Below the pieces are notes generated by a model. It worked only from the letters and a program-made list of their open reading frames with translations, had not been told where the DNA came from and did not search any database. The position numbers and the translations under genes were made by a program. Below are positions 6,351 through 50,114 of a DNA stretch of 64,000 bases, piece by piece. Numbering within the stretch: the stretch's first letter is position 1; the number at the start of each line of letters is the position of its first letter. The DNA comes from a virus (lineage: Duplodnaviria > Caudoviricetes), in the IMG/VR virus record IMGVR_UViG_3300044695_001846, positions 1 through 64,000 of that record. One strand, written 5' to 3'.

Positions 6351-9300
6351 ATGGCAAAGAAATTTTTAAGTACTTTAAAGATAGTTAATCTACCTTCAGA
6401 TCCTATAAGTGGATCCGAGGGAGAACTATACTTTAATACTTCAGCATCAGTAGCAAAGGTTTACCAAGCAGGAGCTTGGTCAGTCCTTGGTGCAGGTGCT
6501 GGCGGTGGAACTACCGTTAGCACAACAGAACCACCTTCTCCAGAAATTGGGGATTCCTGGTATAAAAATGATACTGGTGAATTTTATGTATATGATGGAA
6601 CTTATTGGGTAGAAGTAAATGGAGTTATTGAAGGAGAAAGTAATCTATATACTCTTTCAGATGTAACTATTACAAATCCTACAAATAATGAAGTGTTAGC
6701 ATATGATTCTTCAGGATCTATTTGGATTAATCAAACAGCAAGTGAAACTGGATTATTAACAGAAGAATCTGCTTCTTCTACATATCTTACACAACTATCT
6801 GCTTCTATGAATTATTTAACATCTGACGATGCTATTATGCTATATCAGCCAATAAGTGTAAGACTTTTTAACTTAACTGGCTTAGAAAATGTAGAAGGAT
6901 TTTTAAGAACTGATGGTGGTCTTGGATGGGGAGTAGATACTGCAACTTATTTAACAACTTGGAGTGCATCTTCAACTTATTTAACTCAAGCAGATGCTTC
7001 TAGTGTTTATTTAACACAAACAAATGCAGCAAATACTTATCTAACTCCTGCAACTAGTGCTTCAATATATCAACCATTAGATGCAGACTTGACTACAATT
7101 GCAGCACTATCAGGATCTTCAGGGTTTTTAAAGAAAAATATTTTTGATAATTGGGTAATAGATAGTAACACATATTTAACAACTTATGATGCTTCAACTC
7201 TTTATCAAACAACTGGAGATTATGCAACAATTAGTGGAGTTGAAACTTTATCAAATAAGACTATGAGTTCCGCTTTTATTGATGGAACTTTGACATTTAA
7301 TGACATAGATCATGATCACACTATTTCCTCAGCATCAAATAATTTTACAATTAATGCACATCAAGATCTTTATTTAACTACAACTACTGGAAGCATTGTT
7401 TTACAACCAGATGAATTTGTAAAAATATATGATGAACATGTTGCTACACAAGAATGGGTAGATTTTCAAGACTACTTAACACAGGTTAGTGCCTCTACAA
7501 TATATCAGCCAATTGGATCATATTCTACAACTTCTCATAATCATACTTTAGATAGTCTTTCAAATGTTGTAATTACTGGAACTCCATCAGATGGACAGGC
7601 AATTGTTTGGGATACGTCTACTTCAAAATGGGTAAATGAAACAATAGCTTCAGGATCTTCTTATCCAGATCAAACTGGTAACAATGGAAAATTTTTACAA
7701 ACAAATGGTGCAAGTGTATCTTGGCAAAATGTTGATCTAAGTTCTAAGCAAAACTACTCAGTAGTCCTTGACACATTAGGATCATCATACGTTAGTCTAG
7801 GAGAAGGATCTGGGTTCTTAAAATATACTAGAGGTTTCCTGGGAAGTTCACCAACATGGTCATTAGATACAGCTACATATTTAACATCATATACAGAAAC
7901 ATCCACATTAGAAGATGTAACTGATCGTGGAGCAACATCATCAAATGCAATTACTATTAGCAATACAACAGAGGCTACTAATGCTACTACAGGTGCTTTA
8001 ATTGTGTCTGGTGGTGTTGGCGTAGCAAAAGATCTTTGGATTGATGGAAATTTACATGTTGCTGGAACTACAACAACTGAAAACACTAAAACAGTAGCAA
8101 CTCATGATAATTTAATTTATTTAAATGCTGCTTTAGATTCAACTATTACAAATGCTGTATATTCAAGTGGATCTATTATTTATACTGCAGATAATTTGTA
8201 TGTTGCTGAAATGGATATTAGAATTACTGGAGTAAGTCCATCAGCATTTAATATATCTTCTGGAGATTTATTAACAGTTGCTTCTGCAACCCCTACACAG
8301 TTTGTTGTTATAAAATCAGATCCAGGAGCATCTTATATTTCTGGTGGAACTGCACACGCAAAAGAAGAGGCTGATCCAGATTTAGGATTTTCAGGTGGAT
8401 ATTATGATGCAGGTTATGCTCACGCAGGTTTATTTAGAGACGCATCTGATGGAGTATTTAAATTCTTCCAAGGATATACCCCAGAACCAGATGAAGCGGT
8501 AAATATTGACACTACTCACGCATCATTTGCATTTGCAGACATACAAATAAGAAATATAAAGCCACAGGGATCTGGTCAAAATGATAACTTTGGAATTGGT
8601 TATAATGCAACATTTAATGCTACTGGATTTGCAAATTTTGGTATAGGGCAAAATGCTTTTAGTGGTGGAAGTGGAACAAACAACTTTGCAATTGGCGATA
8701 ACTCCTTGGAAAATAATACTGGAGGAAGGAACTTTGCATTTGGTGGTTCTGCATTAACTAATAATACTGGAGACTATAATTATGCAATCGGTAAAGATTC
8801 TTTACAAAATAATAGTGGATGGGATAACTACAGTATTGGACCTGCTCTTTATGGAAATACTGGAGACTGGAATTATGCAGTAGGAACTAATTCTTTGCAG
8901 AGTAATACTGGAGACTATAATTTTGCATTTGGGTATCAGGCTGGTCTTAATAATACTGGTTCATACAATGTTTATATTGGTAAATCAGAAGGTCTTTCAA
9001 CAAGTAATAATATAGTTATTGCAGATAATGAAGGCAATATAAGAGCACAATATTTATCTGCAAGTTCTGGATGGACTTTAGGAACAGTTGTTTCTGGAAC
9101 CTGGAATGGATCAGCAATTGGATATCAATACGGTGGAACAGGTCTTACTTCTTTAGGTAGTGCTGGCTATGTTCTTGCAGTAAATGCAACAGTTGACGGT
9201 CTTGAATGGGTAGAAATCACTGGTGGTGGATCATCATTTACCAATTCTTCAGAACTTGCAGCATTATTATCAGATGAAACTGGAAGTGGATCTGTAGTAT

Positions 9301-9707
9301 TTTCTAATTCACCAACTCTTACTACTCCAAATATTGGAGCAGCAACTGGAACCTCTTTGACCACAACTGGAAATGTTATTTCACATGTTGATATTTCAAC
9401 ACCTACATTTGTTACAAATTCATATACCATCACATCTACTGATGATGGAAAACTTTTAATGCTAAATAATTCTACAACAGCTGGAAATCTTTTGATTCCA
9501 ACAGATGCGACTTTTAATTTCCCAATTGGAACACAGATAAACATTGTTCAGGCAGGAACTGGTCTAATTACTGTAGCAGCAGTAACTCCAGCAACAACAA
9601 CAGTAAATGCTACTCCTGGTAAAAAACTTAGAGCACAATGGTCTTCAGCAGCAATTGTTAAAACTGCAGCAAATACTTGGTTATTGATGGGAGACCTAAC
9701 GGTATAA
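6351..9707 (+). CDS. Long tail fibre/adhesin protein (1118 aa)
   Basis: Mosaic of fibre motifs: TYLT/SAS repeats, GALIVSGGVGVAKDL, N.AIG..SL..NTG (YadA-like head repeats), C-terminal FPIGTQI...TWLLMGDL domain. Confidence 0.8.
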   Translation: MAKKFLSTLKIVNLPSDPISGSEGELYFNTSASVAKVYQAGAWSVLGAGAGGGTTVSTTEPPSPEIGDSWYKNDTGEFYVYDGTYWVEVNGVIEGESNLYTLSDVTITNPTNNEVLAYDSSGSIWINQTASETGLLTEESASSTYLTQLSASMNYLTSDDAIMLYQPISVRLFNLTGLENVEGFLRTDGGLGWGVDTATYLTTWSASSTYLTQADASSVYLTQTNAANTYLTPATSASIYQPLDADLTTIAALSGSSGFLKKNIFDNWVIDSNTYLTTYDASTLYQTTGDYATISGVETLSNKTMSSAFIDGTLTFNDIDHDHTISSASNNFTINAHQDLYLTTTTGSIVLQPDEFVKIYDEHVATQEWVDFQDYLTQVSASTIYQPIGSYSTTSHNHTLDSLSNVVITGTPSDGQAIVWDTSTSKWVNETIASGSSYPDQTGNNGKFLQTNGASVSWQNVDLSSKQNYSVVLDTLGSSYVSLGEGSGFLKYTRGFLGSSPTWSLDTATYLTSYTETSTLEDVTDRGATSSNAITISNTTEATNATTGALIVSGGVGVAKDLWIDGNLHVAGTTTTENTKTVATHDNLIYLNAALDSTITNAVYSSGSIIYTADNLYVAEMDIRITGVSPSAFNISSGDLLTVASATPTQFVVIKSDPGASYISGGTAHAKEEADPDLGFSGGYYDAGYAHAGLFRDASDGVFKFFQGYTPEPDEAVNIDTTHASFAFADIQIRNIKPQGSGQNDNFGIGYNATFNATGFANFGIGQNAFSGGSGTNNFAIGDNSLENNTGGRNFAFGGSALTNNTGDYNYAIGKDSLQNNSGWDNYSIGPALYGNTGDWNYAVGTNSLQSNTGDYNFAFGYQAGLNNTGSYNVYIGKSEGLSTSNNIVIADNEGNIRAQYLSASSGWTLGTVVSGTWNGSAIGYQYGGTGLTSLGSAGYVLAVNATVDGLEWVEITGGGSSFTNSSELAALLSDETGSGSVVFSNSPTLTTPNIGAATGTSLTTTGNVISHVDISTPTFVTNSYTITSTDDGKLLMLNNSTTAGNLLIPTDATFNFPIGTQINIVQAGTGLITVAAVTPATTTVNATPGKKLRAQWSSAAIVKTAANTWLLMGDLTV

Positions 9708-9714: not shown

Positions 9715-10758
9715 ATGAGATTAAGGAATATTGGATCAGTTGCAGGATCAACGCTAAAAATATTTAGAGATACCTTTAATAGAGCTAACCAAACTGGTAT
9801 TGGAACATCCTCTGATGGATCAACATGGAATATAATTAGAGGTTCTTTTAATATTACTTCCAATAAAGCAGATGGTCAAACTCCAGCAAATTATCCATTA
9901 GCTTCAGTTGATATGCCAAAAGAAGAAGTCACCATTAGCTTAAGTGGTGTTACGCAAGGTTCAACTGCAGCACTATGGGTTACAGATAGTGGAAACTGGT
10001 TTGGAGTTGGAATTGATCAAGAAACTATAAGCTGTAATTGTCAAACATGTACAACTCCTGGAAACTGTGCTTCAACTAACTATCAGTGCAATTCAGGAGA
10101 TTATCCATGTACTGTAGCCAACTATGCTTGTAATGTTGCTAACTATGCATGTAATGGTGGAAGCTATTTCTGCGATGTTGTTGGAAATAGATTCTGTAGA
10201 TCCTATACTACTCCTTGTAACATGATGAGTACGCCATTTAGTCCATGCACTGCTTGGTCTAGAGTATGTAATGGTGGATATAATACTGGAAACTGCAATG
10301 GTTCAAACTCTATGTTTACATGCAATGTTTATGCTTGGACATGTAATGCATACGCTTGGACATGTAATACTTGGGCTTTTAACTGTAATTCAGCTTCATA
10401 TCCATGTGCTTCTTTTAATGCAGCTACTTTTTATACATGCAATTGTCAAACATGCTATCCTCAATATATTAGATTTATACAATCTGTTGCAAACACAATT
10501 ACACAGTTAACCAGCTGGACAGTTGCAAGTGTTATTCAATCTTTTAAGGTAATTATATCTTCTATAAATCCAGCAAAAACTTCTGGAACTGCTACAATTA
10601 AACCTTATTCAGATACTAATCTTTCTACACAAATTGGATCAGATTTAACTTATACCCCAACTGGAGTTGCAATTAATGCAAAATATGGTATAATGATTAA
10701 GCCTTCAAGTTATTCTCAAGGAACAACCATTGATGAAATAACTATAGAGACCAACTAG
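9715..10758 (+). CDS. Putative virion/receptor-binding protein with a 22-Cys insert in a beta-sandwich-like domain
   Basis: N-terminal DTFNRAN...GTSSDGSTW motif; central Cys repeat, mostly 7-residue spacing, flanked by CNCQTC; first gene after promoter GGTATAAT. Confidence 0.55.
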   Translation: MRLRNIGSVAGSTLKIFRDTFNRANQTGIGTSSDGSTWNIIRGSFNITSNKADGQTPANYPLASVDMPKEEVTISLSGVTQGSTAALWVTDSGNWFGVGIDQETISCNCQTCTTPGNCASTNYQCNSGDYPCTVANYACNVANYACNGGSYFCDVVGNRFCRSYTTPCNMMSTPFSPCTAWSRVCNGGYNTGNCNGSNSMFTCNVYAWTCNAYAWTCNTWAFNCNSASYPCASFNAATFYTCNCQTCYPQYIRFIQSVANTITQLTSWTVASVIQSFKVIISSINPAKTSGTATIKPYSDTNLSTQIGSDLTYTPTGVAINAKYGIMIKPSSYSQGTTIDEITIETN

Positions 10759-10768
10759 GAGAACTTTT

Positions 10769-11029
10769 ATGACAGAACAAAATGATCTACCAGATGTTCC
10801 AGATTTAGTTGCACCAAAGCATGATGTGACTGCATTTCCTTATGATATTGCCGTAATTATTGATGATACTGTTTTTCAAATAATGAATGTTGATGGTCAA
10901 CAGGCTGCACAGTTTTTATCCCAGCCAAGATTTGTAAGAATTCTTCCTGGAGATCTTGCTAAAATTGGTTGGAAATATATTGACGGAAAATTTTCTTATC
11001 CAGGTGAATCTAATATAGAAGGATTCTAG
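10769..11029 (+). CDS. Small hypothetical protein (paralogue of 11749-12072)
   Basis: AVIIDDTVFQIM...AAQFLSQP...IGWKY; GGAG RBS. Confidence 0.7.
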   Translation: MTEQNDLPDVPDLVAPKHDVTAFPYDIAVIIDDTVFQIMNVDGQQAAQFLSQPRFVRILPGDLAKIGWKYIDGKFSYPGESNIEGF

Positions 11030-11041
11030 TAGGGGCGTATT

Positions 11042-11749
11042 TTGAAACTAATACATTTTATATGCTCAGAATCAATGGAAATTGGTAAGCCAGATTTAAT
11101 TAAAAAATTTATTCCTGAATGGTATAAAAAAGCGGAAACACATTTTTCTTCAGAAGAAGATTTGGCTATTGAAGAAGGAACTCAAAAAACAAGTGCTGGG
11201 CTAAAAACTTGTGTTCCATTTTTAGATGCAATGATATCTGGGTATGCATTAGTTGTGCCATTTGATATATATGTTGGAAAAACTAAAGATGGAGATCTTG
11301 ACATGAAGTGGAATGCTCCACAAGGTTGGGAAAATTTTGTTGAAGAAAGACCAAAAGAGTCTGGATCCACAATGCCAAGACCAGCAGGACATGCACCCAA
11401 TCATATGGTTTGGTCAGGTAGATGGGGTATTAAGGTTCCAAGAGGATACAGCGTTTTGGTGACTCATCCTTTAAATAGACAAGACTTGCCTTTTACAACA
11501 TCTTCTGCAATAATGGATAGCGATAAGTTTTTTGGAAATGGAAACATTCCATTCTTTATAAAAGAAGATTTTGTAGGAGTTATAGAAAAAGGAACTCCTT
11601 TTGCTCAAATTATTCCAATTAAAAGAAAGAGATGGAAAATGATTCATAACTCTGCTTTAAAAGATGCTATTCAAAAGCATGGACACGATGTTAGAAAAAA
11701 AGAAGGAACTTATAAGAAAAAATATTGGACTAGGAAGGAATATTTTTAA
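11042..11749 (+). CDS. dUTPase-fold-like (DUF6065-like) protein with CVP motif, paralogue 1
   Basis: KTCVPFLDAMISGY...IKVPRGYSVLVTHP...IMDSD...IEKGTPFAQIIP; TTG start. Confidence 0.55.
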   Translation: MKLIHFICSESMEIGKPDLIKKFIPEWYKKAETHFSSEEDLAIEEGTQKTSAGLKTCVPFLDAMISGYALVVPFDIYVGKTKDGDLDMKWNAPQGWENFVEERPKESGSTMPRPAGHAPNHMVWSGRWGIKVPRGYSVLVTHPLNRQDLPFTTSSAIMDSDKFFGNGNIPFFIKEDFVGVIEKGTPFAQIIPIKRKRWKMIHNSALKDAIQKHGHDVRKKEGTYKKKYWTRKEYF

Positions 11750-12072
11750 TGTCAGGTAGTCACGATCATAGTGAAAATATAAGAGTTTTAACTACTAGGG
11801 AAATTGTTAGAGACTTTTTTACTAGAAGAAGAAAATATCGTAGTAAAATTTCTTTAGATTCAAATGCTATTCCACCAGCCCCACCAGAGTCTAAGATAAA
11901 TTATTTAGCAATTATTTTAGATGGAGAAGTTCAGGAAATTATGAGAGCACAAAATAGATTAGCTGCCTTACTCTTAAGTCAGCCACTAATTGTAGAATTT
12001 GATCCTGAACAGGTTAAGCCAAATATTGGATGGTCTTATAAAGAAGAAGAATTTTCTCAATATGGGGAATAA
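11749..12072 (+). CDS. Small hypothetical protein (paralogue of 10769-11029)
   Basis: AIILDGEVQEIM...AALLLSQP...IGWSY; translationally coupled. Confidence 0.7.
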   Translation: MSGSHDHSENIRVLTTREIVRDFFTRRRKYRSKISLDSNAIPPAPPESKINYLAIILDGEVQEIMRAQNRLAALLLSQPLIVEFDPEQVKPNIGWSYKEEEFSQYGE

Positions 12073-12724
12073 GATTATTACATTTACATCTTGTGTTCCA
12101 GAAATAGATGTACCCCATCCTTTTCCAGCTAGTAGGCTTGTTCCAGAATGGTATAGAAAATTGCCAGGTGCTGCAGATAAGATAGAAACAGTTAAGAAAT
12201 GTGTTCCAGTCTTAGATGCCCTAACCTCTGGATATATGATTACTTTGCCTGTAGATGTTCACTTTAATGGAGAAGAAAGATCTTTCTGGTATGACTCTCC
12301 TTTTGAAATTAATTCTAATCACTACTTATCGCAGACACAGGGGGTTGATATTGGAGATGAATTCCATGAACAACCACATAAATGGATTAATCAATGGCTA
12401 ATTGAAACTCCAAAAGGATATAGCTGTTTATTTATTCATCCGTTAAATAGAGCAGATCTTCCCTTTAAATCTTTTACTGGAATTGTTGATACAGACAAGC
12501 ATCCAATTATAATTAATTTTCCATTTGTTATGAAAAAAGATTTTTCTGGAGTTATCCCAGCAGGGACTCCAATAATTCAAATTATCCCATTTAAAAGAGA
12601 TGATTGGTCTATGAATGTAGTTGATGATAAACAATTTAAAGAACATCCAGAAGCTCATGAAGTAGAGAATCCACCATTTAACTGGTATAAAAGAAGATGG
12701 TGGACCAGAAAGACTTATACATAA
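12062..12724 (+). CDS. dUTPase-fold-like (DUF6065-like) protein with CVP motif, paralogue 2
   Basis: KKCVPVLDALTSGY...ETPKGYSCLFIHP...GIVDTD...IPAGTPIIQIIP; ATG 12062 preferred over the track start. Confidence 0.55.
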   Translation: MGNKIITFTSCVPEIDVPHPFPASRLVPEWYRKLPGAADKIETVKKCVPVLDALTSGYMITLPVDVHFNGEERSFWYDSPFEINSNHYLSQTQGVDIGDEFHEQPHKWINQWLIETPKGYSCLFIHPLNRADLPFKSFTGIVDTDKHPIIINFPFVMKKDFSGVIPAGTPIIQIIPFKRDDWSMNVVDDKQFKEHPEAHEVENPPFNWYKRRWWTRKTYT

Positions 12725-13689
12725 TGGAAAGCATTTATATTGCCATCCCTTCAATGGCTGATACTGAAACAAGTGCCACTATAAAAAATGCCATAGAATC
12801 TGCAGAATATCCAGATAGAGTTTTTATTGGAGTTTCTTTTAAAGACTTGAATAAAAAAGAGTATAAGAGAGTGCTTTCTCTAAAAGAAAAGTATCCAAAT
12901 ATTTCTGTAGAGTTTATAAAACTTAAAAAAAGAAAAGTTTCAGAGTATGGCACTGGAGATGGTAGATTTAGAGCACAGCAAATGTACTCTAATCAAGATT
13001 ATATGCTTCAGGTAGATTCTCACACCTATTTTGATAAAAACTGGGATTCTTATTTAATAAAACTATTTAAAGAATTTAAAAATCAAAGCAACATAGAAAA
13101 GTTTGTTTTAACTTCATACATTCCATACTATTCATACCAGCCAGAAAGATCTAGACACCCTGGAGAGTTTTCTTTACCAAGATACCCTCATTTAATTGTT
13201 GATGATTTTTTCTTAAGGTATTTGCCAAAATGGGATGATAATCCAATTCCAGAAAATTCTAAATTAGACAAGTTTGTTCCATGTGTAAAATTTAACGGAG
13301 CCTTTGCTTTTGGAGATAAAAACTTTGTCAACAATACTGGTGTATTCAAAGATGCAATATTTTATGATGAAGAGTTAATTCAAAGCATTAATTTGATTGG
13401 AAATGATTTTGCTTTGGTATTTTTGAATATAAAAGATTTTCCAATAGCACACCTATACTCTGAAGATATAAATGAATTTGGTGGAGAAAGAACATATTTT
13501 GGAGACCTTCTGAGTGCAAGAAAACAAGAAGAGGTTGCAGACAAAGCAATATCTAACTACTTAAACTTTATAGCAAATCCAGAAAACAAAGAGCTAGTTG
13601 CAAAATATGAAAAATATGCTAAAATGGATTGTAGACGTGGACCGCTTTTAAGCAACTATATCCCAAAAGATTTTATTGTTAAGGAATGA
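12724..13689 (+). CDS. Glycosyltransferase, GT60-like (Skp1-hydroxyproline GlcNAc-transferase family)
   Basis: SIYIAIPSMADTET..TI..A...A.YPDRVFIGV and YMLQVDSHTYFDKNWD (DSH motif); start coupled at TAATG 12724. Confidence 0.7.
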   Translation: MESIYIAIPSMADTETSATIKNAIESAEYPDRVFIGVSFKDLNKKEYKRVLSLKEKYPNISVEFIKLKKRKVSEYGTGDGRFRAQQMYSNQDYMLQVDSHTYFDKNWDSYLIKLFKEFKNQSNIEKFVLTSYIPYYSYQPERSRHPGEFSLPRYPHLIVDDFFLRYLPKWDDNPIPENSKLDKFVPCVKFNGAFAFGDKNFVNNTGVFKDAIFYDEELIQSINLIGNDFALVFLNIKDFPIAHLYSEDINEFGGERTYFGDLLSARKQEEVADKAISNYLNFIANPENKELVAKYEKYAKMDCRRGPLLSNYIPKDFIVKE

Positions 13690-13690
13690 T

Positions 13691-14002
13691 ATGAACGATT
13701 TGCCAGAAGTGCCAGATTTAGTATATCCAAAACCAACTGAGGATGTTTCAAAAAAAACAAAGAGACCAGTAAGACCTTGGGACATATTTAATAAAAACAT
13801 TGAAAAAGTAGTTGATAATGTTCAGCAAGAAAGAATGTCTATATGCCTACAGTGTCCTAGATTAATAAAAGCAACCAGGCAATGCAAAGAGTGTGGATGT
13901 TTTATGGACGCAAAAACCAAACTTTTTGATGCAGAATGTCCATTAGGAAAATGGAATAACGTAGTGGTCAGTGTAGACCAGTTTGATTATAAAAAGGATT
14001 AA
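13691..14002 (+). CDS. Small Cys-rich metal-binding protein (DUF6171-like)
   Basis: RMSICLQC...QCKECGCFM..KT....CPLGKW; AAGGA RBS before ATG 13691. Confidence 0.65.
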   Translation: MNDLPEVPDLVYPKPTEDVSKKTKRPVRPWDIFNKNIEKVVDNVQQERMSICLQCPRLIKATRQCKECGCFMDAKTKLFDAECPLGKWNNVVVSVDQFDYKKD

Positions 14003-14005
14003 GAC

Positions 14006-14752
14006 ATGGTTGATGTAAAGCTAATAACTGGAGATGCAACAAACCTGTCCTTTATTGAAAGTAACTCAATAGATTTAATTATTGCAGCACCCCCATTCAT
14101 TAATAGAGATTCTACTGGATATGGTGGAGATCCAAAGAAACAAATAAACTTTAATTCTAAAAAAATGTTAAAGCTTCTTTTAAAAAGTACAAAAGAAATG
14201 GAAAGAGTTTTAAAGCCAACTGGAAGTATTTGGATTGAAATTTCTCCAGAAGATGCTTTAATGCATAGATATATCGTTGAGGTTTTGGATAAAACAAATT
14301 TAAAGAATCCTAACACAATTGTTCATAAAGTTTTAGATGATGAAAGTAAGTCTAATATAGATGAGGTAATTTATAAAGATTGGTTTTTATGGTTTCATCT
14401 TGTAAAAGATGTTAATAACTTTTATTCTAATCCGTTTAAAGTAAAAAAATTTAGAGATCCTGTCTGGTATTTAAACAATACAAATAGAGAAGATTTAGTT
14501 GATAAAACATTAAAGCTTACTTATCCTAAAATTATTAATTATACTGTTGTAAAAGATATTCCAGAAAGGTTTATAGAAATGTACACCAAGGAAAAGGCTG
14601 TAGTTCTAGACCCGTTTGGTGGAAGTGGAACTGTTGCTGCTGTAGCATATAGTATGAATAGAAATGGAATAAGCGTTGACGTTTCTGAAGAACAAACAGA
14701 CGTGGCTAGAAAAAGAATAGATTTAGTAAAGGCTATGGAAAAAGATGTTTAA
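14006..14752 (+). CDS. N4/N6 DNA methyltransferase-like protein (beta class) with atypical catalytic motif
   Basis: SIDLIIAAPPF at motif IV position; VLDPFGGSGT SAM-binding motif. Confidence 0.7.
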   Translation: MVDVKLITGDATNLSFIESNSIDLIIAAPPFINRDSTGYGGDPKKQINFNSKKMLKLLLKSTKEMERVLKPTGSIWIEISPEDALMHRYIVEVLDKTNLKNPNTIVHKVLDDESKSNIDEVIYKDWFLWFHLVKDVNNFYSNPFKVKKFRDPVWYLNNTNREDLVDKTLKLTYPKIINYTVVKDIPERFIEMYTKEKAVVLDPFGGSGTVAAVAYSMNRNGISVDVSEEQTDVARKRIDLVKAMEKDV

Positions 14753-15470
14753 TAAAAAATATATAGAGATAAGTAGAATTTCAGACTCCTCTGTTTTTGA
14801 AATAATCCCAAATAAGGTTAAAAGAAAATGGATGGATAAAACAGATGGAAATGCTTATCAGTGCGTTCCAATGAATGTTGCAAATTCTTACGGATGGACA
14901 GTTCTTTCTCCAGGAAGGTTTTCCGCAACTTGGGATGGTGGAGACGCTAAGCATTCTTTAAGAGTTGAACTTGAAAGAGATAGTCCTTTTAGATTTGCAG
15001 CTTCAGAATTTGGACACGGAATACTTTCAATAGTCCCAGACTTTATAGTAAGAACATCAAAGAATGTTTCATTGTATGTTAGAGGTATTCCAAATCAGAT
15101 AGCAATAGGTTTACAGCCTTTTGATGGAATAGTTGAAACAGACTGGCTTCCTTTTACCTTTACCTTTAACTATAAATTTGTTAAACCTGGTAAGTTAACA
15201 ATTGAAAAAGATCAGCCTCTATTTACCTTTTTTCCAATTGAAAGAGGGTACATAGAAAGTTTTGAAACAAGAGAATCTTTTCTATATAAAGATAAAGAGT
15301 TCTACGAAGACTATTTAAAGTATTCAGATCTTAGAGAATTGCAACAGTCTGGAAAGCCAGTAAAAGATTCTGGAGCATATTTAAAGGGTAGGCTTGAAGA
15401 CAAAGAGTTTGATATACTTAATCACACTAAAAAGGTAAGCCTTAAAGGGTTTAAGAAAGAAGAAGAATGA
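14745..15470 (+). CDS. DUF6065-like protein with CVP motif, paralogue 3
   Basis: RKWMD....AYQCVPMNVANSYGW...GIVETDWLPFTFTFNY...IEKDQPLFTFFP. Confidence 0.6.
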   Translation: MFNKKYIEISRISDSSVFEIIPNKVKRKWMDKTDGNAYQCVPMNVANSYGWTVLSPGRFSATWDGGDAKHSLRVELERDSPFRFAASEFGHGILSIVPDFIVRTSKNVSLYVRGIPNQIAIGLQPFDGIVETDWLPFTFTFNYKFVKPGKLTIEKDQPLFTFFPIERGYIESFETRESFLYKDKEFYEDYLKYSDLRELQQSGKPVKDSGAYLKGRLEDKEFDILNHTKKVSLKGFKKEEE

Positions 15471-16378
15471 TGCCAAGATATCTTATAACAGGTGGTCCAG
15501 GTTCGCTAGGAAAAGAAATTTGCAAGAGCCTTTTGAACCTTTGTGACACTAAAGAGATTATTATGTTTTCTAGAAATGAAACTAAGCAGTTTGAATCTTC
15601 TATGTCTATTAATGATGACAGAGTTAAGTATGTAGTTGGAGACATAAAAAACTATGACTCTCTATTTACCATAATGAAAGGTGTAGACTATGTTTTTCAT
15701 GCTGCAGCTTTAAAGCACATAGATTTGGCAGAAAAATCTCCAGATGAAACTATTAAAATAAATGTTTTAGGAACAAGTAATGTTGTAAATGCAGCAATTC
15801 AAAATGGAGTAAAGAAGGTACTACTCGTATCAACAGACAAGTCTTGTATTCCAACAAGTATCTATGGAGTCAGTAAACTTTTGTCTGAAAGGAATGTAAT
15901 ACTTTCTAATGGACTTTCTGATACAAAATTTTCTGTAGTAAGGTTCGGCAACTTAATTGGAAGCAATGGATCAATTTTTCAAAAATGGAAAATTATAAAA
16001 GATAGTGATCAAAGAATTACTGTAACTCATAAAGATATGACAAGATTTTTTATTAGAAGTTCTGAAGCTGCTATGTGGTCTGTTAAATTTATTAAGGAAA
16101 TGGTTGGCGGAGAACTTTTTGTTCCTAAAATGAAGAGTGCAAACGTTTATGATATTGCTAAGTCTTTTGTATCTGAGTCTCAAATAGATATAACTGGAAC
16201 TAGGTCTGGAGAAAAGCTTGATGAGGATATCCTGTCTAGCCTGGAACTTGGCACAGTAGAAGATCTTGGAGAATTTTTTATTTTGCACAATGATAATAAG
16301 GTTAACAATTTTTCATATAATAGTAAAAATAATAAATACTGGTATTCTGGAAAAGAAATAGAAAGTTTTTTTGATTAG
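15467..16378 (+). CDS. UDP-GlcNAc 4,6-dehydratase-like SDR (PseB/FlaA1/CapD family)
   Basis: LITGGPGSLG, HAAALKH, STDK, YGVSK, VRFGNLIGSNGS, MTRFF, GEKL.E motifs. Confidence 0.85.
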   Translation: MMPRYLITGGPGSLGKEICKSLLNLCDTKEIIMFSRNETKQFESSMSINDDRVKYVVGDIKNYDSLFTIMKGVDYVFHAAALKHIDLAEKSPDETIKINVLGTSNVVNAAIQNGVKKVLLVSTDKSCIPTSIYGVSKLLSERNVILSNGLSDTKFSVVRFGNLIGSNGSIFQKWKIIKDSDQRITVTHKDMTRFFIRSSEAAMWSVKFIKEMVGGELFVPKMKSANVYDIAKSFVSESQIDITGTRSGEKLDEDILSSLELGTVEDLGEFFILHNDNKVNNFSYNSKNNKYWYSGKEIESFFD

Positions 16379-37138: not shown

Positions 37139-37473
37139 ATCTAGCTGAGATAGAATCTAGAGTATTTCTTCTGGGGTTCTGGAAGAATTATTCTGAAATG
37201 GAAGAAAGCATATCTATGCCTGAACTAGTAGCAATACTAGAAGCTAAAAATAAAGAAGATTACGAAAGTAAGAAATTTATGGCAGCACTTCAGGGAGTAA
37301 ATCTTGATTCCGATTCGTCTGAAAACAAATGGGAAGAAATGAAGGCTAGAGTGTATAGCGGTGGCGCAACCTCTAACCCAAATGATATCCTGGCTCTACA
37401 AGGACATGCTGCACAACGTGCTGGCTTTGGAATTGGAAATGGGCTAGATTATGAGGTGATCTATAGTGGCTGA
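37099..37473 (+). CDS. Tail assembly chaperone extension (GT-like), reached by -1 frameshift
   Basis: The -1 frame is open from 37099 (after TGA 37096-37098) to 37473: PKRTGSGSSWDELDLAEIESRVFLLGFWKNYSEMEES... Confidence 0.75.
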   Translation, partial: PKRTGSGSSWDELDLAEIESRVFLLGFWKNYSEMEESISMPELVAILEAKNKEDYESKKFMAALQGVNLDSDSSENKWEEMKARVYSGGATSNPNDILALQGHAAQRAGFGIGNGLDYEVIYSG

Positions 37474-48600: not shown

Positions 48601-50114
48601 TAATTGGAAAAAAGGTTGATGAAAAAAATCAAATACCAGATAACGCTACAACATATTTTACAACTGATATAAATGGAGAAGCCTCCTCAATCTCTGGTGG
48701 ATCTGGAGGTCTTGGTTTTATGGTTGACAATGTAACAAAATCTGGATACTATTTTGAAATTATGTCATTGTCTAAAGACATTCTTTCTTCTTTTTCTACA
48801 GAAAAAAATAAAAATAGTGTTTTGGAAAATATTATATTCTACAAAATTCCTCCACAAAATGTAAGATATCCTCATAATGGAATTGATGCAAATGGAAATG
48901 AAAGTGAGTCTATTGTTATAAATGCAGATGGAAAAGAAAATTTTGCACAGCCTATAAAATTGTGGGGAACTTTAGCAAAAGTTCTAGTTGACGAAGGCAT
49001 GTTCTTTGGAATGGATAGAATGGCTTCTCAAGATAATCCAACAGTACACGATCTTGGAATTGAGTTTGAAAGACGTGGGTCATCTGTTAAATTTTATTTA
49101 TATTTAAACAATGTTTTAATTGCTACTGTTATTGACAATAATCCATTGCCATCAGTAACTAGCGATACAGTATTTAGCACATGTTTATTTGTTAGAGGTG
49201 GATCTAAGTGCATGTTTGAAAATATATATGCCCTAAGAAACAGAGCAATTCAATCAGAAAGTGTAACGGCAATATCTTTAGATAATTTAGGAATCTCTTC
49301 AAGAAATAGCTTGGCAGCTTTTGGAGATGATAACATATCAATTTCAGAATCATTAAGAAAGTACGCCCTTTCTGGAATTGTTCAGTCAACTTACCTTTCT
49401 TCAATTGGAACAGAAAGACCTCCAGGATTTGATATTTATTTTGAAGAGTTTGGAACTATCATGAGAGAGTGTGCATACTTTAATATCAAGTATGATCAAG
49501 CATATCCAGCAATAGTTGCAAGAATGCTTCCACCACTTAATAATGAAAAAGTTTATACGGTTTCAGGATTTTTGCCAGGATCCTATGGGGCAGAGTTTTT
49601 ATTGTTTAATAGCTCTGATAGAATAATATCTCTTGCTGATAGTTCTGCAAATAAAATAGTTATAACTGGAATTACATTTACACAAAATATATCAAATGTT
49701 CTTACAGTTGATGACTATCTTGGGGAAAGATCAAATCTGTCAGACCCAATAATTATTGATAATGTCATAAGGTCTCCACAGTTAGCACAAAAGTTCTATG
49801 ATACTATTAAGAATAGTAGATCCGTTTATGGCAAAAAATCATTTTCTTTAAACTCTTTATATGTTCAAAATGAAGATTCTGCAAAAGATTTAATGGGGTG
49901 GATGATTGATAAAACAATGAAAAGTAGAAAAGTAATTACTGTAAATACATTTGGAACTCCTCATATTCAGCTTGGAGATATTGTTAAAATAGATTATGAT
50001 TTGCCAGAGGGTGTAAAATTTGTAGAAACAGATAAAAGATTTATTGTTACTTCTATGAAGTATTCAAGATCCTCATCTGATATAAAAACTTCATTAAACT
50101 TGGTGGAGGTGTAA
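45624..50114 (+). CDS. Tail tip / baseplate hub protein (1496 aa)
   Basis: Synteny; LQRLAQSTQTAMFFDEYNNF and C-terminal PHIQLGDIVKI hub-type motif. Confidence 0.65.
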   Translation: MFFDNDLITHLKTNNSLQVDSLIIAEWNQNDLSNIENYGNYRWRPSSASVDVFRNLAPSYDPNDDGNFYTGALESKYISEYRVDSGSPLTFLTDQEEMQLFYSLKDCFKPFRPRSGINKMLFFGDLDEEKNKHVDSIRSGRRPRYYFCSKNDQFKYWTSYRKDSGVEVGVSSVIARGLNSSFGYEITDSAPFVVYKEQVAANRIVVKMQTNLADDLVLGVDGEPVVSSVIRRENLITNDELSDRSKSSIPKKWKIQYLDSENNWLNAISFDENSLRSDGSDIVPWDGYVEISYGVKIPQEYRENFHFIDYISSSVQLPANTINGEAYILLENDLDPGVLWVWNTVLNDWETSNVEYGFSLLENDDTKRTGIITSLVDPKYFLRNEIPTYRDIVFLKGLRVVVETMVSPNRTFDLIEMSPRLKADVSKYVIDFEINKDIAATDYGLPVGALVASTGQINLSNHDGAFTRLNVFNQDEKTGSIISGNLRPQTKFDFYETVLNVQGYDKFIPLKTFYSENSAESYGGFSDVSLTLRDAFFRFESEMATPIFLQNCTLTMAVAVLLDNIGFGNYIFKNITTANDPVIPFFFVEPDISVAEVLQRLAQSTQTAMFFDEYNNFCMMPKEYLIPDYSISDSNTSISERLVNLYGQKEVGSVPNIEFIAGVDSKIINDGQINYTTRYIQRDVPNLEQAQINPNDRTYSYKSAVLWELGDQDEARTINQPIGKNGYSLGAVTLNAELSSTVPFVENHQIQENIIDVGESGYLLPRFQGYLYANGEIIRYDAQEYQVTGVGTVWITNNNEYQKYFSKLAFNGKMIVTGKLRIYTEPFYQESPGASQDGLEAGVVYKNGAVSSHGRGQFGTSVTSHFHELNPYWASSKQAFRMNSSLLFSTTPTESIKYPPLLTTTAGTRSDDSAKGNAVVSGKIASLLRRTVRAENNSSTVDQLEAGTVQSSALILSGSKTSSQASIPRDLITYVYKDFSSNDFKHVGTRMRIIGKKVDEKNQIPDNATTYFTTDINGEASSISGGSGGLGFMVDNVTKSGYYFEIMSLSKDILSSFSTEKNKNSVLENIIFYKIPPQNVRYPHNGIDANGNESESIVINADGKENFAQPIKLWGTLAKVLVDEGMFFGMDRMASQDNPTVHDLGIEFERRGSSVKFYLYLNNVLIATVIDNNPLPSVTSDTVFSTCLFVRGGSKCMFENIYALRNRAIQSESVTAISLDNLGISSRNSLAAFGDDNISISESLRKYALSGIVQSTYLSSIGTERPPGFDIYFEEFGTIMRECAYFNIKYDQAYPAIVARMLPPLNNEKVYTVSGFLPGSYGAEFLLFNSSDRIISLADSSANKIVITGITFTQNISNVLTVDDYLGERSNLSDPIIIDNVIRSPQLAQKFYDTIKNSRSVYGKKSFSLNSLYVQNEDSAKDLMGWMIDKTMKSRKVITVNTFGTPHIQLGDIVKIDYDLPEGVKFVETDKRFIVTSMKYSRSSSDIKTSLNLVEV

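Follow-up and report, generated by a model that had tools for sequence, protein, structure and literature searches.

Disulfide-stapled beta-hairpins are well known among antimicrobial peptides. The ultralong third complementarity-determining region of bovine antibody heavy chains (CDR H3) raises a two-stranded stalk without rungs from a beta-sandwich and ends in a small disulfide-bonded tip, the hypervariable knob, and the needle of T4 gp37 is a trimer stapled by His-bound iron. Cystine ladders are cyclic in the theta-defensins, and a cystine-ladder-like loop of three rungs occurs in HAP2 of Chlamydomonas (PMC6327110). Residues 113-310 of the mycobacteriophage Douge baseplate protein 8zdo_a are a BppU carbohydrate-binding module (CBM) that was shown to bind mycobacterial surface glycans (PMC13033339). 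Could a module of the latter kind carry a ladder of many rungs? Here, we describe a gene on a stretch of 64,000 nucleotides (hereafter the window; positions 1 to 64,000 of the IMG/VR virus record IMGVR_UViG_3300044695_001846, Caudoviricetes), whose product of 347 amino acids has a lectin-like body interrupted by a cysteine (Cys)-rich insert. We read it, with a probability of roughly 0.6, as a lectin-fold protein of the virion's tail-fibre module that bears an out-and-back stalk with disulfide rungs for host recognition.

The gene lies at 9715-10758 on the plus strand, as do all its parts given below, and ends in the stop codon TAG (10756-10758). Its 22 Cys all fall within nucleotides 10033-10455 (residues 107-247), exactly as had been claimed in an earlier note on this DNA, which was made from the letters alone, and the open reading frame (ORF) has none elsewhere. 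They occupy residues 107, 109, 112, 118, 125, 132, 139, 146, 153, 161, 168, 178, 185, 194, 203, 210, 217, 224, 231, 242, 244 and 247. The spacings that the note had listed, 2,3,6,7,7,7,7,7,8,7|10|7,9,9,7,7,7,7,11,2,3, are reproduced from the translation, as are the heptads quoted there, the motif CNCQTC that begins and closes the insert, and CNMMSTPFSPC as the loop at its centre. The first CNCQTC, the left base clasp (residues 107-112; 10033-10050), is unchanged across 26 close relatives. It opens the left, putatively outgoing arm with Cys 1-11 (residues 107-168; 10033-10218), which includes a variable mid-stalk patch, CTVANYA CNVANYA (residues 132-145; 10108-10149), and the segment CDVVGNRF (residues 153-160; 10171-10194), one half of a conserved two-segment module. 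The tip loop (residues 168-178; 10216-10248) leads to the right, putatively returning arm with Cys 12-22 (residues 178-247; 10246-10455). There, the mirror partner of CDVVGNRF, CNGGYNTGN (residues 185-193; 10267-10293), is followed by a second variable patch, CNVYAWT CNAYAWT CNTWAFN (residues 203-223; 10321-10383), and by the right base clasp (residues 242-247; 10438-10455). Tandem Repeats Finder identified 21-bp arrays in both arms, one at 10102-10167 that encloses the left patch and one at 10318-10368 that overlaps the right one.

Cys makes up 15.6% of the insert (22/141), compared with 0.49% in the other ORFs of the window (96 of 19,760 residues; 55 ORFs tabulated), and it is absent from the upstream fibre of 1118 residues and from a window protein of 2523 residues. 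Asn also reaches 15.6%, while His, Glu, Lys, Ile and Leu are all missing. The aromatic richness pointed out earlier is borne out by 22 aromatic residues (15.6%), next to five charged ones, and one N-x-S/T sequon was seen by eye. When the spacings were shuffled 200,000 times, their mirror asymmetry averaged 25.2, whereas the real vector scores 10 (p = 0.0028) and surpasses 99.7% of the shuffled versions in mirror symmetry.

The insert splits a single beta-sandwich. In an AlphaFold2 (AF2) model made with 119 relatives, both flanks have a predicted local distance difference test score (pLDDT) above 90 and form one sandwich, the N-terminal half (residues 1-106; 9715-10032) scoring 78-97 over residues 11-110 and the C-terminal half (residues 248-347; 10456-10755) scoring 82-97. 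Both CNCQTC motifs are located in confidently placed neighbouring strands, namely E105-107/E110-114 for the left clasp and E238-242/E245-247 for the right one (pLDDT 93 for residues 241-250). When the model was compared with known structures by VIA-align, the best matches were CBM66 (4b1m_A; Z 15.8, root-mean-square deviation (rmsd) 2.5, 148 residues aligned), the C-terminal receptor-binding domain of mycobacteriophage TM4 gp23 (9n6a_A; Z 15.7, rmsd 3.0, 173 aligned) and residues 113-310 of the Douge baseplate protein 8zdo_a (Z 15.5, rmsd 3.2, 172 aligned), and many legume-lectin-type and GH43-associated modules were also matched. A Foldseek search of the PDB gave no match at E<=0.001. In BFVD, six uncharacterised proteins of uncultured phages came first, followed by minor tail proteins of Arthrobacter, Gordonia and Mycobacterium phages. 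The body is confidently predicted to be a two-sheet jelly-roll beta-sandwich of the concanavalin A (ConA)-like lectin/CBM type, and the insert would project from this sandwich, which agrees with the earlier expectation.

Curated sequence families do not place the protein in the ConA-like lectin/CBM class, as no Pfam family was matched at E<=0.1 and no PHROG at E<=0.01. With a profile of the 26 closest relatives, PDB sequences gave no match at E<=10; phmmer and hmmsearch returned nothing relevant, 50,697 phage records contained no tblastn counterpart of the stalk protein, and the ESM Atlas offered nothing usable for residues 104-250. Relatives are nevertheless plentiful among metagenomic proteins. 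A search with candidates scored from 5.8 billion clusters yielded 312 homologues at E<=1e-3 (the best 120 of 312 listed), and a profile search yielded 743 representatives of 50%-identity clusters at E<=0.001 (the best 150 of 743 listed). The comparison set consists of the 271 distinct proteins of at least 250 residues among the matches listed, the window's protein included; shorter ones were left out as fragments, and in three proteins a single N-terminal Cys lying over 60 residues away from the others was disregarded. It should be noted that the family statistics below are drawn from related sequences, so that many counts are without independence. Among 185,579 species genomes scanned, the sole relative is on a 2,969-bp contig binned with an Arenimonas metagenome-assembled genome, a small contig that offers no prophage or host lead. 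As read from these sequences, the design occurs in hundreds of uncultured phages. The full-text literature, outside supplements and subscription journals, yielded nothing on this protein family or on a many-rung ladder in a phage protein.

The family carries the evidence for the mirrored register. The Cys number is even (4 to 46) in 243 of the 271 proteins, odd in 4 and zero in 24, which means that 243 of the 247 Cys-bearing relatives have an even count; if only the 126 representatives of 50%-identity clusters are counted, the figures are 101 even, one odd and 24 without Cys. Only four of the 196 distinct spacing architectures are odd. Among the 189 testable ones, 136 exceed 99% of their own shuffles in palindromy and 155 exceed 95%, and mirrored spacing pairs agree within one residue in 798 of 1037 cases in the first 120 relatives. 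Counted in residues, the left arm correlates in length with the right one (r = 0.98; 117 proteins), and the Cys period, which is 5, 7, 8, 9, 10, 11 or 12 residues depending on the clade, is alike on both arms. Irregular spacings are mirrored too, for example 2,3,27,14,8|18|8,14,32,2,3, and so are long Cys-free stretches (27|32, 36|39, 92|92).

The motifs follow the same register. Of 62 segments ending in [VT]GNR[FYW], 61 stand opposite C..[YW]NxG[NF] at the mirrored index, and the VGNR half is found on the outgoing (left) arm 42 times and on the returning (right) arm 20 times, so this two-segment module is present in either orientation. Heptads ending in Pro hardly ever face each other (2 of 143 Pro-containing rungs at register 0 versus 14-19% at +/-1; Fisher p 2e-10, or 3e-6 on unique pairs), and in several relatives (P0013) two heptad types alternate on one arm in antiphase to the other. 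The evenness, the arm correlation and the module pairs uphold the claim that the arms are matched Cys for Cys (11 + 11). Since the pattern is conserved and elaborated over a large family, it is far beyond chance. An out-and-back stalk, in which Cys i would face Cys 23-i, is well supported by these comparisons, and the general arrangement of a cystine ladder, with Cys i opposite Cys N+1-i about a turn, is found across the relatives as well.

Mirror symmetry could in principle be a by-product of periodicity in a one-way beta-solenoid of the insect or grass antifreeze type. Fifteen of the 189 architectures do not surpass their shuffles in palindromy (p > 0.2), most of them because uniform spacings are palindromic in any order, and the Cys-free relative P0181 has a sub-threshold Pfam match to a grass antifreeze beta-roll (E = 0.0055). 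However, the irregular spacings are mirrored rather than repeated, the Cys counts are even, the module halves face each other at mirrored indices and can change arms, and both ends of the insert return to adjacent sandwich strands. Consequently, we consider a solenoid very improbable.

What, then, would hold the two arms together? Cys counts that are multiples of four (4n) are found in 110 relatives and counts of 4n+2 in 133, without preference for the former. The ladder residues of the whole family include only 0.1% His and 1.7% Asp plus Glu, together with 16% Tyr, Trp and Phe, and each Cys tends to be flanked by Asn (24% at -1, 31% at +1), by Ala, Ser or Gly at +2 (62%) and by Tyr, Trp or Phe at +3 (48%). 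Where a pair of facing Cys is missing, giving mirrored 14|14 rungs, Ile occupies one of the two positions and Ala or Val the one across from it in 17 of 18 cases, a replacement that was probably one evolutionary event. Finally, 24 of the 271 relatives retain the insert without Cys and without His or other substitute ligands. The missing 4n bias, the scarcity of His, Asp and Glu, the ligand-free relatives and the Ala/Val-Ile replacement favour bonded pairs over metal sites, and the rungs are likely to be disulfides as judged from these patterns.

The competing idea, that the mirrored Cys are metal ligands of a stapled and possibly trimeric needle like the T4 gp37 tip, is not without merit. The out-and-back topology and mirrored ligands would look identical in sequence, gp37 has an elongated six-stranded antiparallel needle (PMC7291167), folding would take place in a reducing cytoplasm, and at the base CxC lies opposite CxxC, an arrangement repeated as knuckle-like four-Cys nodes in P0170 and P0236. 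However, the spacing of this base motif differs widely over the family, in addition to the counts, the scarce ligands and the Ala/Ile at lost pairs that speak against metal. Cys in sets of four with few aromatic residues, as expected of Cys4 zinc, iron-sulfur or metallothionein-like proteins, is not the pattern here, the counts being divided 110 to 133 and the aromatic content being 15.6%; nor does the insert, which is free of His, contain the His-x-His iron motif of gp37. We therefore regard the metal-stapled needle as unlikely.

A further possibility is that the arms are paired as proposed, with the Cys reduced or partly bonded, beta-structure and aromatic packing holding the stalk, and the thiols being tolerated or serving as a redox latch or in inter-chain bonds. 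The Cys-free relatives, which keep a two-armed insert of Tyr/Asn/Gly-rich repeats, and the four relatives with an odd Cys number are consistent with it. For the aquatic cyanophage Pam3, disulfides in the tail fibre and baseplate are reported from cryo-electron microscopy and mass spectrometry, with three of the six fibre-baseplate disulfides detected, and reduction led to fibre loss and contraction (PMC9942802). However, the other phage proteins avoid Cys at 0.49%, which makes 22 neutral ones unlikely, and the even counts and the paired loss with hydrophobic replacement fit a bonded pair best. Reduced or partly bonded Cys are accordingly given a small share of our belief, and disulfide rungs remain the preferred reading. 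As to the Cys-free state itself, P0155, P0162, P0164, P0171, P0173, P0174, P0181, P0069 and P0124 have an insert that is wholly or mostly without Cys, with short Tyr/Asn/Gly/Pro-rich repeats on both arms, such as GSNYGxxG 8-mers in P0181 and ~10-mers in P0069.

The stalk changes in length by paired steps. Among close relatives that share the flanks, the Cys number is 26, 24, 16 or 14, and the alignment puts the gained or lost units on both arms, so that they differ from the window's stalk by +1, +2, -3 or -4 rungs, both arms at once. The alignment of homologues for matched heptad changes had been set beforehand as a check, and its outcome is favourable. The earlier suggestion that length changes by 21-bp units on both arms is supported by these matched pairs and by the 21-bp arrays in each arm; however, it does not hold in its strict form, since 4 of 247 relatives change one arm alone.

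Variability was computed over seven distinct stalks with exactly the architecture of the window's. The base and the tip module (residues 153-203) are nearly invariant, and within the latter only one of nine non-Cys positions of the tip loop (residues 168-178) varies. By contrast, 12 of 12 non-Cys positions vary in residues 132-145 and 17 of 18 in residues 203-223. These hypervariable patches are mirror partners (residues 203-223 versus 125-145), located at equal height on the arms, and they coincide with the 21-bp arrays. A conserved tip argues against a simple variable-knob model, and the knob of the proposed stalk-and-knob antenna is not clearly the variable part.

Whole stalks move as well. 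On contig L001 (6001-7041), the insert is near-identical to the window's (synonymous divergence, dS, 0.036), whereas both flanks have diverged (dS 0.39-0.43); on contig L002, it is the insert that is more diverged than the flanks. Such mosaic divergence indicates that recombination carries stalks from phage to phage, and by these distances the L001 stalk changed hands recently as a cassette. For a target of a diversity-generating retroelement, no RVT_1 match was found in the source record, which is linear, 73.5 kb long and estimated to be 68% complete; its template repeat was not searched for.

The stalk gene starts 7 nt past the stop of a tail-fibre gene (6351-9707, plus strand; 1118 residues, no Cys; phrog_8780 minor tail protein on residues 1014-1116). 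The C-terminal ~100 residues of this fibre (9414-9704) are the part conserved beside the stalk-gene family. A fibre match is present in 67 of 78 related viral-contig loci, mostly to these last ~100 residues only, and the matched end lies at, or a few bases from, the start of the stalk gene. One relative, P0288 (708 residues, in the cluster of P0096), was considered as a fusion of fibre and stalk protein and rejected, as its C-terminal extension is unrelated to the fibre; this extension of ~320 residues is glycosyltransferase-like by motif reading and would stem from a genuine fusion or from a read-through in the gene call.

The place directly downstream of a fibre gene is also the classical one for fibre chaperones; T4 gp38 and lambda Tfa are fibre-assembly helpers encoded after the fibre gene. 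The stalk protein might similarly be an assembly helper or another accessory rather than a lasting, host-recognising part of the virion. However, its lectin/CBM fold is common to receptor-binding modules that are virion parts, and a rigid, Cys-rich, variable and recombining projection is ill-suited to a cytoplasmic chaperone, which makes such a helper improbable in our opinion. From the fold, the position in the tail module, the conserved fibre C-terminus and the variable, recombining projection together, we infer a role of the stalk protein in host recognition, and its target is likely to be a glycan.

The record further encodes a portal, a protease, a capsid protein, several fibre genes and a ribonucleotide reductase. 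Its head protease is nearest to Streptomyces phages (127 of 195 matching records) and then to Vibrio phages (58), and a WhiB-like ORF (PF02467, E 1e-12, above the cut-off) is located at 72444-72611 of the record, outside the window. The WhiB-like ORF and the actinophage fold matches point to an actinobacterial host, and the host is probably an actinobacterium.

Downstream of the stalk gene, an 86-residue ORF, a DUF6065-like ORF of 235 residues, a 107-residue ORF and another DUF6065-like ORF of 241 residues follow on the plus strand (10769-12724) in conserved order. They are matched in 59, 70, 67 and 70 of the 78 loci, respectively; because paralogues cross-match, the locus counts given for each single gene, that of the fibre included, are upper bounds. 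The DUF6065-type ORFs are three in all, at 11042-11749, at 11999-12724 (a weak PF19541 match, E 2.9e-4) and at 14745-15470 (E 5e-55), and each of the first two is preceded by one of the small paralogous ORFs (86 and 107 residues). No literature on DUF6065 was found in the full-text search, which had the scope given above. The fibre region also contains a PF11397 N-acetylglucosamine (GlcNAc)-type glycosyltransferase (12697-13689; present in 28 of the 78 loci), an N6/N4 DNA methylase (14006-14752) and a Polysacc_synt_2 dehydratase/epimerase (15467-16378). A 108-residue ORF at 13676-14002 has six Cys at residues 57, 60, 70, 73, 75 and 88 (CxxC...CxxCxC) and a weak match to DUF6171 (E 6e-5, below the cut-off), and may be a small zinc-binding protein. 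Two very large ORFs are found in the tail region, at 37466-45037 (2523 residues, no Cys) and at 45624-50114 (1496 residues).

The architecture that we propose from this evidence is as follows. One loop of the sandwich would be replaced by the 141-residue stalk. The chain would leave through the strand of the first CNCQTC, run outward with 11 Cys, turn within CNMMSTPFSPC and return with 11 Cys to the second CNCQTC. After the particle has reached oxic water, each facing pair, i and 23-i, would most likely be oxidised to a disulfide rung. The two-segment modules, stacked one on another, would then form a rigid rod, conserved in its base clasp and tip module and variable in the middle. Its length would shift by the unit (21 bp here) gained or lost on both arms, and whole stalks would be swapped by recombination. 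The protein would most likely be mounted at the end of the upstream fibre, or close to it, and help to recognise a glycan on the host surface.

Several observations weigh against this reading. Four of the 247 Cys-bearing relatives have an unpaired Cys (P0017, P0023, P0033 and P0204); P0017 and P0023 are short of one heptad on one arm, and P0033 is a chimera of a laddered and an unladdered arm. The 24 Cys-free relatives suggest that the rungs are not essential to the fold. The N-terminus, as read from the sequence, is without signal-peptide-like features, and a protein that lacks an export signal would fold in the reducing cytoplasm. Genes for thioredoxin, glutaredoxin or a radical SAM protein did not turn up in the 73.5-kb, 68% complete record, and in a search of it for Erv1/ALR the control itself had no match anywhere. 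Disulfides in a regular antiparallel ribbon prefer non-hydrogen-bonded pairs, and the odd spacings (5, 7, 9, 11) and the turn-forming Asn, Gly and Pro around the Cys would fit a regular two-stranded ribbon poorly. AF2 gave no confident model of the stalk, with a pLDDT of 37-55 for residues 121-230 when 119 sequences were used and a mean pLDDT of 34 with the 26 closest ones; the putative stalk may be a flat ribbon, a coiled ribbon, two meander sheets or an oligomeric needle. Close relatives share the tip loop with little change, and dN/dS, the ratio of nonsynonymous to synonymous divergence, is 0.08-0.21 throughout, with no sign of positive selection at this coarse level. The presence of the protein in the virion and its attachment to the fibre are suggested by gene order and fold, and a complex prediction for the C-terminal 125 residues of the fibre with the lectin protein, run without controls, scored 0.00, a value that points neither way. 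Overall, the earlier interpretation is partly supported: it stands in its mirrored pairing, matched length change and sandwich base, the disulfides are likely and the hairpin geometry is tentative, the strict both-arm rule has exceptions, and the knob is not clearly the variable part.

More tentatively, and with a belief somewhat short of even, we suggest that the stalk represents an architecture of its own. It would consist of interchangeable modules closed by disulfides, with ~5-23 rungs set by evolution. It would be built in the cytoplasm, be oxidised after release and serve as a specificity probe extending across the actinobacterial envelope to a glycan receptor, and its rungs might double as a redox latch.

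Should the rungs prove to be disulfides, no other cystine ladder known to us would come near this one in length, with its 11 rungs and up to 23 in relatives, compared with the three of theta-defensins and of the HAP2 loop. It would then be a natural rod, length-tunable, modular and hyper-stable, displayed from a lectin domain. The system would bear on the host range of abundant and hardly culturable actinobacterial phages of freshwater type, as well as on how virions assembled in the cytoplasm acquire many disulfides, and it could be of use in protein engineering for rigid spacers and display scaffolds. The evenness of the Cys count, the arm-swappable modules and the paired loss are comparative rules that give exact predictions.

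Compared with the known systems, the closest structural principle is the cystine ladder, and the closest functional relatives are the lectin-fold receptor-binding modules of actinophages. As in cystine ladders, antiparallel segments have their Cys mirrored about a turn, and the HAP2 ladder is also a loop insertion in a beta-rich protein. However, those ladders have 2-3 rungs in 18-37 residues, with rungs 2 residues apart, whereas the window's stalk would have 11 putative rungs in 141 residues, with rungs 5-12 residues apart in the family. It is a linear insert in a protein of 347 residues rather than a short peptide or loop of about three rungs, cyclic in the theta-defensins; its rung number varies, Cys-free versions exist, and its bonds are putative.

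Among fibre tips, the out-and-back needle of T4 gp37 may, by analogy, be the closest architectural counterpart, being an elongated antiparallel structure stapled at regular intervals (PMC7291167), but the stalk insert has no His and no sequence relation to gp37. In comparison with the bovine CDR H3, the phage stalk would be laddered, and it is the middle, not the tip, that varies among close relatives. The Douge BppU module (8ZDO), TM4 gp23 (9N6A) and CBM66 (4B1M) share the sandwich over 148-173 aligned residues (rmsd 2.5-3.2); the first two also share the location in the tail module, and the Douge module binds host glycans. However, the identity to these modules is only 8-11%, without a match at the level of sequence families, and the stalk protein is small and has a gene to itself behind that of the fibre. 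In addition, a Cys-laddered insertion is absent from the descriptions consulted of the Douge, TM4 and CBM66 modules.

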